Origin: an uncultured virus (IMG/VR IMGVR_UViG_2061766007_000712)
Taxonomy: Duplodnaviria > Heunggongvirae > Uroviricota > Caudoviricetes
DNA: 543 bases
IMG/VR virus record: IMGVR_UViG_2061766007_000712
Direction: 5' to 3' (one strand)
A program made the position numbers and the translations under genes. Below the pieces are notes generated by a model. That model saw only the letters and a program-made list of their open reading frames with translations, was not told where the DNA came from and did no database searches. Shown here piece by piece: positions 1 to 434 of this stretch; position 1 is the stretch's first letter, and each line of letters begins with the position of its first letter.

Positions 1-39
1 AATTCCATACAGGATATTAAGCCCATTCATAAGCACCAT
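1..39 (-). CDS. Possible N-terminus of a downstream gene running off the left edge (MVLMNGLNILYGI...)
   Basis: ATG at 39-37 and an in-frame ATG at 30-28 open a frame that stays open for 13 codons to the window edge, directly downstream of the structured region. There is no well-spaced Shine-Dalgarno (GGAGG at 70-66 is 26 nt upstream of ATG39), and the frame is too short to recognise. Confidence 0.2.
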   Translation of the reverse strand, partial: MVLMNGLNILYGI

Positions 40-128
40 TTAGTAGATATTATATGGTTTATTTGCCTCCCCATACTTACTAATGTGCGACCTATGTGCA
101 ACCATAGACCTTGCAATATATCTACTTA

Positions 129-148
129 ATGCTACTTATAAGTAGCAT
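129..148. repeat. Perfect 20-bp palindrome ATGCTACTTA|TAAGTAGCAT (hairpin with 8-bp stem and TATA loop, or an operator)
   Basis: Read directly: 129-138 is the exact reverse complement of 139-148. It extends to 125-151 (CTT/AAG) with a 1-nt bulge. Confidence 0.95.
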
Positions 149-167
149 AAGACAAAAATATTATTTA

Positions 168-206
168 GTTTACTATTGTTTAAAGGTACAATAGTATAAA
201 CCTTTA
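168..206. other. Interlocked inverted repeats (pseudoknot or alternative hairpins)
   Basis: TACTATTGT (171-179) pairs with ACAATAGTA (188-196). The loop sequence TAAAGGT (181-187) is the exact reverse complement of ACCTTTA (200-206). GTTT (168-171) can also pair with AAAC (198-201). Confidence 0.75.
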
Positions 207-236
207 GATACTCCTTCCTAGTAAAGACAGTATCTA
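205..236. other. Stem-loop with an 8-bp perfect basal stem
   Basis: TAGATACT (205-212) pairs with AGTATCTA (229-236). An inner CTT/AAG pairing (214-216/224-226) is also possible. Confidence 0.75.
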
Positions 237-266
237 TACATTGCATTTTGCTGTACATTGTTTCTA

Positions 267-283
267 GTCAAATTATCTTTGAC
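267..283 (-). other. 5'-terminal hairpin of the predicted transcript
   Basis: The minus strand reads GUCAAA-GAUAA-UUUGAC, a 6-bp perfect stem whose first base is the predicted +1. Confidence 0.6.
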
Positions 284-289
284 ACCTTA

Positions 290-318
290 ATATTACCACA
301 TTTTGTAATTTTTGTCAA
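290..318 (-). promoter_or_regulatory. Sigma-70/sigma-A-type promoter with extended -10, firing leftwards; predicted TSS about 283
   Basis: The minus strand reads TTGACA (318-313, perfect -35), then aaaattacaaaaTGTGg (exactly 17 nt, ending in the TRTGn extended -10 motif typical of Firmicutes), then TAATAT (295-290; 4/6, retaining the key T, A and final T). A purine (G283) lies 7 nt downstream. Confidence 0.8.
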
Positions 319-434
319 CATAGGTAAATTTTTTATTGGAGTTATGGGAGGAGGTAATTGTAGCGATTTTCAATTTCTCTTTTGGGGGTGGGTAAGTAGT
401 GGCTTTTCTTTGTTTACTTTCGTTATTGTATAAT

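Follow-up and report, generated by a model that had tools for sequence, protein, structure and literature searches.

Type I toxin mRNAs carry an early metastable hairpin that is later displaced by a long-range helix between the 5' and 3' ends. Phage tRNA regions have long been known to encode small stable RNAs of obscure role; for T4 these include RNAC and RNAD, described in excerpts of PMC3014915 as small stable RNAs without known roles.

Long duplexes also serve as processing signals. In Bacillus subtilis, RNase III cleavage of long-range duplexes, 10-36 bp in length, leaves a 2-nt 3' overhang, and positions -2 and +2 of these sites are over 90% paired (excerpts of PMC11780869). Reactivity with RNase III is governed by the proximal box (PMC3074117, in part), and the scRNA of B. 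subtilis is freed from a stem by RNase III with the help of RNase J1 (PMC1935012, in part). For Mini-III the core is WSSW, with ACCU the best version (PMC5141509, in part). Y RNAs, in turn, present a docking motif, GNCGAAN0-1G, near their 5' end (PMC4201824, in part).

The window considered here is a 543-nt stretch of DNA from an uncultured tailed virus, about 27% G+C and without a long open reading frame. It is most likely the promoter end of a polycistronic non-coding RNA array in an AT-rich gut phage. What is new is that different phage RNAs share one recognisable, covarying handle.

Promoter, fold and make-up of the window

An earlier note on this DNA had described a strong minus-strand promoter followed by one densely structured RNA of about 260 nt. 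The promoter-proximal features are as follows.

290 to 318, minus strand: sigma-70/SigA-type promoter, with TTGACA at 318-313, a 17-nt spacer, an extended TG, and TAATAT at 295-290
267 to 283, minus strand: first hairpin, 6 bp; not conserved, with 263 other bases instead in contig X5
167 to 256, minus strand: upstream module, consisting of hairpins 236-205 and 202-167 plus a weak stem at 257-242

Judged by its spacing, the promoter would start transcription near 283-284 on the minus strand. The match alone is not above chance, since the window holds five promoter-type sites against 3.9 +/- 1.9 in shuffled sequence (a weak second site lies at 462-435). The promoter is nonetheless supported, because it is kept in the goat-gut contig X5 (286-514 aligned, spacer 1 nt shorter) and promoters of the same type occur at every one of the 11 phage loci checked. 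An inverted repeat of 8 bp without mismatch (293-286 and 21-14) surrounds the whole 283-21 stretch and overlaps the -10 box; it would pair only in a transcript started further upstream, as at the weak site.

The fold is real. On the minus strand the 21-283 region reaches -68 kcal/mol (z -4.03), which 0 of 200 shuffles equal; the plus strand gives z -3.41 (1 of 200). For 154-290 the two values are -3.16 and -1.63. G-U pairs make up 10 of 81 on the minus strand and 3 of 69 on the plus strand in the 21-283 region, and so favour the strand of the promoter. Sliding windows of 100 nt place the signal between about 76 and 250 and detect none from 226 to 475. Pair probabilities of 0.73-0.98 support the stems 283-278/272-267, 236-229/212-205 with 5 inner bp, 202-198/171-167, 196-188/179-171, 110-103/96-89, and 76-71/57-52, together with a long-range pairing, 141-118/50-27; the stem at 257-242 is weak (0.41).

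On promoter, dense folding and strand, the earlier note is thus borne out. Its picture of successive local stems needs revision: the stems are there, but a single 23-bp helix of long range is the main feature of the 3' half. Its statement that nothing comparable occurs in 320-543 holds for 320-460, where folding is no better than in shuffles (z -0.6 and -0.3), but 400-543 gives a weak, AU-only signal on the minus strand (z -2.4; 4 of 200 shuffles). An Rfam search of the window produced no match above the gathering score (best E 2.3), in keeping with the claim of an uncatalogued family, and a scan of the window found no terminator. A stretch at 353-445, G-rich in its plus strand and unfolded, nevertheless shows no listed difference in X5 and X7 run contigs and few in X8; it is absent from the viral and genome collections scanned.

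Two relatives reveal how the folded region is put together. X5 came to light when the window was compared with contigs of four sequencing runs. It keeps 286-514 and 172-256, with 263 other bases replacing 257-285. Over 172-256 it is identical to the window save for a 27-base insertion within the tip of the 236-205 hairpin, and it ends in 25 loose bases whose minus-strand reading resembles the a' element described below (GUGCUAUC). The second relative, L001, is a phage-like metagenome contig of 1650 nt that agrees with window positions 26-136 at 102 of 111 and has no match to the rest of the stretch. The swap in X5, and the retention of 26-136 alone in L001, mean that the 263 nt consist of modules strung together after a promoter that stays fixed. 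The structure is a genuine minus-strand one without a catalogued family, and it is a composite: the 5' hairpin and 3' module proposed as parts of one RNA do not travel together, and the conserved unit is 148-21.

Among 20 listed sequencing runs, more than half of the window's words occur in one bovine gut metagenome, its possible source; the others are mostly ruminant gut, with small shares, and no RNA run is listed among the 20.

The closing helix and its two folds

The conserved unit consists of a cargo, a helix that closes it, and an outer flank on each side, in the order a'-a-cargo-b-b'. We call the helix and its flanks the handle.

118 to 141, minus strand: arm a (5') of the helix that closes the cargo, with GUAGCAU as its core and the mismatched G at 132
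27 to 50, minus strand: arm b (3') of the same helix, with AUGGUGC as its core and the mismatched G at 36
51 to 117, minus strand: cargo, 67 nt; hairpins 110-89 and 76-52 on a three-way junction
129 to 148, minus strand: a'-a hairpin, a perfect 20-nt palindrome; alternative partner of the 5' arm, competing with the a:b helix
21 to 34, minus strand: b-b' hairpin, degenerate in the window (5 bp, two of them G-U)
38 to 128, minus strand: predicted released RNA, 91 nt, from putative cuts at 129/128 and 38/37

Comparison with L001 separates cargo from handle. The cargo, which carries a GGGGAGG loop and may form a loop-loop pairing, differs at one of its 67 nt, and the arms differ at 11 of 48 (Fisher p 2.6e-4); all but one of the arm differences keep the pair. 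Six modules can be aligned, a small and related set that was aligned before the structure was drawn and in which two share a cargo. Over these six, the a:b helix has 23 pairs, with 97.8% of 138 cells paired and two-sided change in 12 of the 23; 0 of 500 shuffles reached as high a value, and slid controls gave 26-50%. The G.G mismatch is invariant across the six, as is one U-G pair (6/6); another column is G-U in 3/6. Changes among the homologues are compensatory rather than stem-breaking, as expected of the folded RNA that the earlier note had described.

A model, R1, built from the two cargo-sharing copies (window and L001) finds unaided a second L001 module with another interior (639-842, E 5.6e-7). 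This module, L001B, spans 834-647 (z -4.5) and combines the same arms with a different interior. R1 also matches around other cargoes in L177 (E 6.6e-7) and in L112 and L168, which are identical here (E 8.7e-6); reading the L177 array revealed one further handle. These last loci come from a set of viral loci around Ro60 (80 kept of 120), gathered because two family records encode Ro60 in the array slot. Three of the 80 match R1 below E 1e-4, and 77 have no match below E 0.4. In 62 sources R1 finds nothing outside the window and L001.

The reach of the handle search is that of R1 and the pattern scans. Over 2.14 Mb, the pattern scan returned only known modules (its a' rule missed L001B) and none in reversed sequence. 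L112 7785-7915, which was not used to define the pattern, has the same G.G, with both folds at -39.3; L177 7925-8075, found afterwards, has A.G in place of G.G, and both flank hairpins are possible. A sequence-free search for the architecture gave 18 matches against 10 in reversed sequence, a weak enrichment, so only the sequence-defined handle is secure. A degenerate arm pattern with hits in nine viral loci was rejected, all of them lying inside open reading frames without a partner arm. One handle encloses only 37 nt, which argues that the handle itself matters.

Each arm can also pair with its own outer flank. An a' partner is present in all six modules; a shuffled flank does as well in 4 of 1000 cases for the window and in 0-22 of 1000 across modules, and in the diverged module L177 8096-8180, a' follows the changes of a. 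A b' partner is well formed in five of six, with 38-129 of 1000 shuffles as good in each, which is individually weak; for b:b' of the window the figure is 476 of 1000. The long fold and the two-hairpin fold lie 0.9-2.7 kcal/mol apart in five modules and 6.5 in one, the long form being favoured in all six (pair probability 0.79-1.0). In the hairpin form, the 5' mismatch G is paired with C in 6/6, and the 3' G likewise in the five with a good b'.

At the level of sequence comparison, then, the a:b helix, its G.G mismatch, the a':a hairpin, the modularity, the strand and the reuse around different cargoes are established. This reuse, along with the lack of a reverse transcriptase in five of five related phage records, counts against the earlier suggestion of an RNA that serves a partner gene to the left.

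Gene neighbourhoods place the handle in a phage family. L001 encodes a MucR/Ros zinc-finger protein (PF05443), a two-way terminator at 451-469, and, downstream of the module, a 115-aa orphan protein that is acidic (pI 4.1) and of no family; a search for relatives of the latter returned none but itself, and its Atlas matches, below 0.9, are hypothetical proteins from phages. The 67 relatives of the MucR-like protein led to 12 viral and three binned contigs. In 6 of these 15, the slot of L001's array, just downstream and on the opposite strand, holds 14-23 tRNA/tmRNA genes; two have one or two such genes and seven have none. The slot encodes Ro60 in 2/15. G417, a handle-bearing 104-kb tailed phage that has Pol III alpha, Ro60, RtcB and a tyrosine recombinase, has a YonO-like RNA polymerase (64-71%), a terminase (66-91%) and a primase in common with eight of the 11 records fetched. 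Phages of this family measure 100-130 kb and carry tRNA clusters and a YonO-like RNA polymerase; Ro60 is often present too. No MucR-like gene was found in G416-G420, so L001 is tied to G417 and G418 by its RNA modules and indirectly by core genes.

The window's own phage origin is inferred from these relatives. The host is uncertain, since one related contig sits in a genome binned as Candidatus Coprovivens and another in a bin from a separate phylum. Of 401 sampled genomes, G013, a binned genome that contains a related phage contig, is the only one with Ro60 and the MucR-like gene. Searches for window homologues gave five short AT-rich matches across the family of G013 (401 genomes), nothing beyond promoter-like or AT-rich fragments among the 15 MucR-bearing records, and 21 and 18 short chance matches by BLAST against phage and plasmid records, none covering 80%. 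Exact-pattern scans of viral contigs and of genome contigs found nothing, and a metagenome scan gave four loci, one real (L001) and three chance 18-20-mers. A literature search produced no description of the handle. The handle motif is absent from the six supplements of PMC10690425 that were searched, and a prior computational listing is possible.

The related phages hold other RNA elements. A conserved, G+C-richer non-coding stretch of at least 450 nt lies within a tRNA cluster on the minus strand of L018 (11288-11736), L026 (about 3790-4236) and L019 (about 8150-8340); it ends just before a tRNA in two phages, has no Rfam match at the gathering score, and is a candidate large ornate RNA. Phage-encoded tmRNA genes are present at L015 18836-19261, L016 17424-17862 and L018 15202-15568. 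Short promoter-driven hairpin RNAs with the loop AGCAGUAUC in common adjoin the MucR-like gene on the minus strand of L015 (10440-10800), L016 (10424-11010), L019, L026 and L027. L001 1470-1650, minus strand, forms a module C with several possible pseudoknot pairings by eye; it shares 30 of 37 nt with an L177 array module at about 8290-8390, plus strand. At the end of the L177 array, 8570-8658 on the plus strand, lies a degenerate tRNA-like element (35 bits) that ARAGORN missed. Long near-perfect hairpins with palindromic feet occur at L078 9835-9935 (plus), L082 160-395 (minus), L100 9715-9820 (minus), and L105 1310-1410 and 1740-1840 (plus), between same-strand genes and just before ribosome-binding sites; they resemble RNase III-type sites.

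Processing proposal and rival readings

The preferred reading, at about even chances, is that the handle is a processing element, predicted to release the 91-nt RNA (128-38) and to cap both neighbours. In this model, a':a would fold first, during transcription, and the 23-bp a:b helix would form once b is made. A host RNase III-family enzyme would make two cuts just inside the mismatch, one in each strand (129/128 and 38/37) and staggered by 2 nt 3', and the cargo would leave as a 91-nt stem-closed RNA. The left-over arms would then refold to guard against exonucleases, a':a capping the new 3' end upstream and b:b' the new 5' end downstream. The G.G mismatch would keep the long helix near in energy to the two-hairpin form, where both Gs are paired with C.

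The positions of the hairpins bear on this model. The U of GUAGCAU (window 129) is where the a':a hairpins stop, and in five of six modules, the window being the exception, b:b' begins at the partner site with a 2-nt stagger (38/37); the 5' cut was placed after the hairpin ends were known, so only the 3' match counts as a test. Pieces enclosed between the putative cuts measure 91, 91, 162, 91, 132 and 37 nt in the six modules. With a covarying helix of 23 pairs that encloses an RNA, the handle fits the duplex range of 10-36 bp given in the excerpted B. subtilis source. Against processing, the handle matches the E. coli RNase III consensus (PMC4357697, in part) only loosely, and the G.G falls 4 nt before one proposed cut and 2 nt after the other (-4/+2), a register that departs from the paired flanks and proximal box of the excerpted sources; another register is possible. 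WSSW is absent at the proposed cut, and AGAU/AUCU, which BsMiniIII cuts 62% more slowly, occurs in four of six modules. No RNase III gene was found in five related phage records; G013, the candidate host genome by binning, has two RNase III-family genes with frames of 136 and 337 codons. RNase III leaves 5'-phosphate and 3'-hydroxyl ends, which are not substrates for RtcB, so circularisation would need another nuclease.

A broader form of the proposal is tentative and distinctly less probable: a plug-and-play cassette, in which a bistable handle would take any cargo, both strands would be cut, and refolding would cap the neighbours, so that a whole gut-phage family could make a library of small RNAs, as yet undescribed, next to its RNA-repair genes (Ro60/RtcB). 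At a guess, the cargo may be a stable RNA of the phage tRNA/RNA-repair region that acts as a decoy or a scaffold. The handle gives exact predictions (the cut sites, the 91-nt product and the capped flanks), and with it a family of cargo RNAs can be searched for. A processing stem that caps itself, if true, would be a compact tool for making several stable RNAs per transcript in Gram-positive hosts.

The handle could instead be a second kind of Ro60-docking stem, its modules being Y-RNA-like tethers for phage Ro60, which we judge unlikely. The handles of L112/L168 and L177 lie on the Ro60 strand, 1-550 nt past its stop codon; the family carries Ro60 in the slot adjoining the MucR-like gene (in the 2 of 15 records already mentioned); a constant stem with a variable head is the plan of Y RNAs (PMC4201824 and PMC12135203, in part); and the likely Y RNAs of these phages are missed by Rfam as well. 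The docking motifs GNCGAAN0-1G and (C/U)GAAG and the T-loop are nevertheless absent from window 1-330, L001A (its first module) and L001B, whereas (C/U)GAAG, or a sequence very near it, is present in the L021 and L026 modules upstream of Ro60. The window handle, lacking the docking motif given in the excerpts of PMC4201824 and PMC12135203, is for that reason not classed as a Y RNA. The link to Ro60 is also biased: Ro60 lies within 4 kb on the same strand in L112, L168 and L177, all fetched by Ro60, and most of the loci so fetched (77 of 80) have no handle match. L001 has two handles and no Ro60 within its 1650 nt, and docking leaves a' and b' unexplained. As to tRNA-like T and D arms, there is no GUUCRA loop in the window or the L001 modules, and no tRNA in L001.

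Separately, rows of 2-4 stem-closed RNAs lie directly upstream of phage Ro60 at L026 7320-6720 and L021 12382-12148, both minus strand. They share a handle of their own, (C/U)GAAGCRG...UAUUCUC, which also occurs upstream of Ro60 in L112, L177 and L144, and one of the L026 RNAs has its T arm before its D arm, like YrlA. These rows are likely phage Y RNAs that Rfam does not call.

More doubtful is a regulatory or folding switch without cleavage, which would gate the cargo fold or read-through to the next gene; its metastable 5' hairpin would give way later to 5'-3' pairing, in the manner of type I toxin mRNAs. Near-equality of the two folds in five of six modules is what such a switch would use, the cargo has its GGGGAGG loop, and the L001 protein gene starts 135 nt after a module. 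The cargo hairpins, however, are the same in both folds in L001A, L001B, L112 and L177; no terminator and no open reading frame start at ribosome-binding distance from GGGGAGG were seen; and what comes after most handles is further non-coding modules rather than genes.

A single-stranded DNA site, attC-like or HUH-type, that shuffles cassettes within the array is very improbable. An attC site has the core RYYYAAC...GTTRRRY (GTT/AAC) and a variable, non-conserved interior. Modules are indeed gained, lost and swapped like cassettes, the handle folds as DNA too (z -3.2 and -4.6), and G417 has a tyrosine recombinase. Against this stand the U-G pair kept in all six modules and the column that is G-U in three, the disappearance of the cargo hairpins in the DNA centroid fold, a cargo more conserved than the arms, the absence of the GTT/AAC core at the window handle ends, and the absence of a Y1 transposase among 108 G417 proteins. 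A MITE was dropped because the arms covary with each other, which terminal inverted repeats do not need; a tRNA mimic, a T-box, SAM-II, purine and c-di-GMP riboswitches, and a ribozyme, all considered by eye, were dropped without Rfam support.

Just as poorly placed is the idea of one 260-nt RNA (a retron, DRT, type III/AbiF toxin-antitoxin or IscB component, or a cis leader for the left gene), for which speak the promoter directly before 263 densely folded nt, sub-domain ends that pair like retron a1/a2 arms, and a left-hand gene outside the window, and against which speak the composite nature of the 263 nt, the missing reverse transcriptase in five of five related phage records, the absence of RT, TnpB/IscB, ToxN and AbiF among 108 G417 proteins, the lack of an Rfam match, and L001 neighbours that are a 115-aa orphan and a MucR-like gene.

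Comparison with known RNAs

RNase III processing stems are the nearest counterpart of the processing proposal. Those of the 16S and 23S rRNA precursors, the B. subtilis scRNA precursor (PMC1935012) and mRNA duplexes (PMC11780869), as far as the excerpted sources describe them, resemble the handle in being helices of 20-25 bp made of RNA flanks, of a length that RNase III can cut, with a predicted release of the enclosed RNA. They differ in that the handle has a conserved core and a G.G mismatch, is reused around unrelated cargoes, and gives each arm its own outer partner, with flanks that are predicted to be able to cap themselves.

Bacterial and phage Y RNAs (YrlA/YrlB, PMC4201824; Yrl1/2 of Thermus phage phiLo, PMC12135203; both in part) are alike in having paired ends with a conserved defect and a variable interior, in occurring as several copies in a row, and in lying near Ro60 in some handle relatives. 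In contrast to them, the handle has no CGAA/GAAG docking motif, a symmetric G.G in place of a large bulge, no tRNA-like arms and additional hairpins in its flanks, and it occurs downstream of Ro60 or where there is none.

T4 RNAC and RNAD (excerpts of PMC3014915) are non-tRNA structured RNAs in a phage tRNA/ncRNA transcription unit, as the modules here may be. The handles of L112 and L177 follow 3-4 same-strand tRNA genes at a distance of 2-2.5 kb; neither the window nor L001 has a tRNA. The likeness ends at sequence, the window having none in 50,697 phage records, and at the handle, which is common to the modules here and is not stated for T4 in those excerpts.

Type I toxin-antitoxin mRNAs offer a parallel to the proposed displacement of the handle's early hairpin by a long-range, end-to-end helix. 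They differ in their toxin reading frame and antisense RNA, neither of which is seen here, and the cargo fold in most modules is independent of the state of the handle.

Processing stems as such are already known; the novelty lies in a shared two-state handle around exchangeable cargoes.
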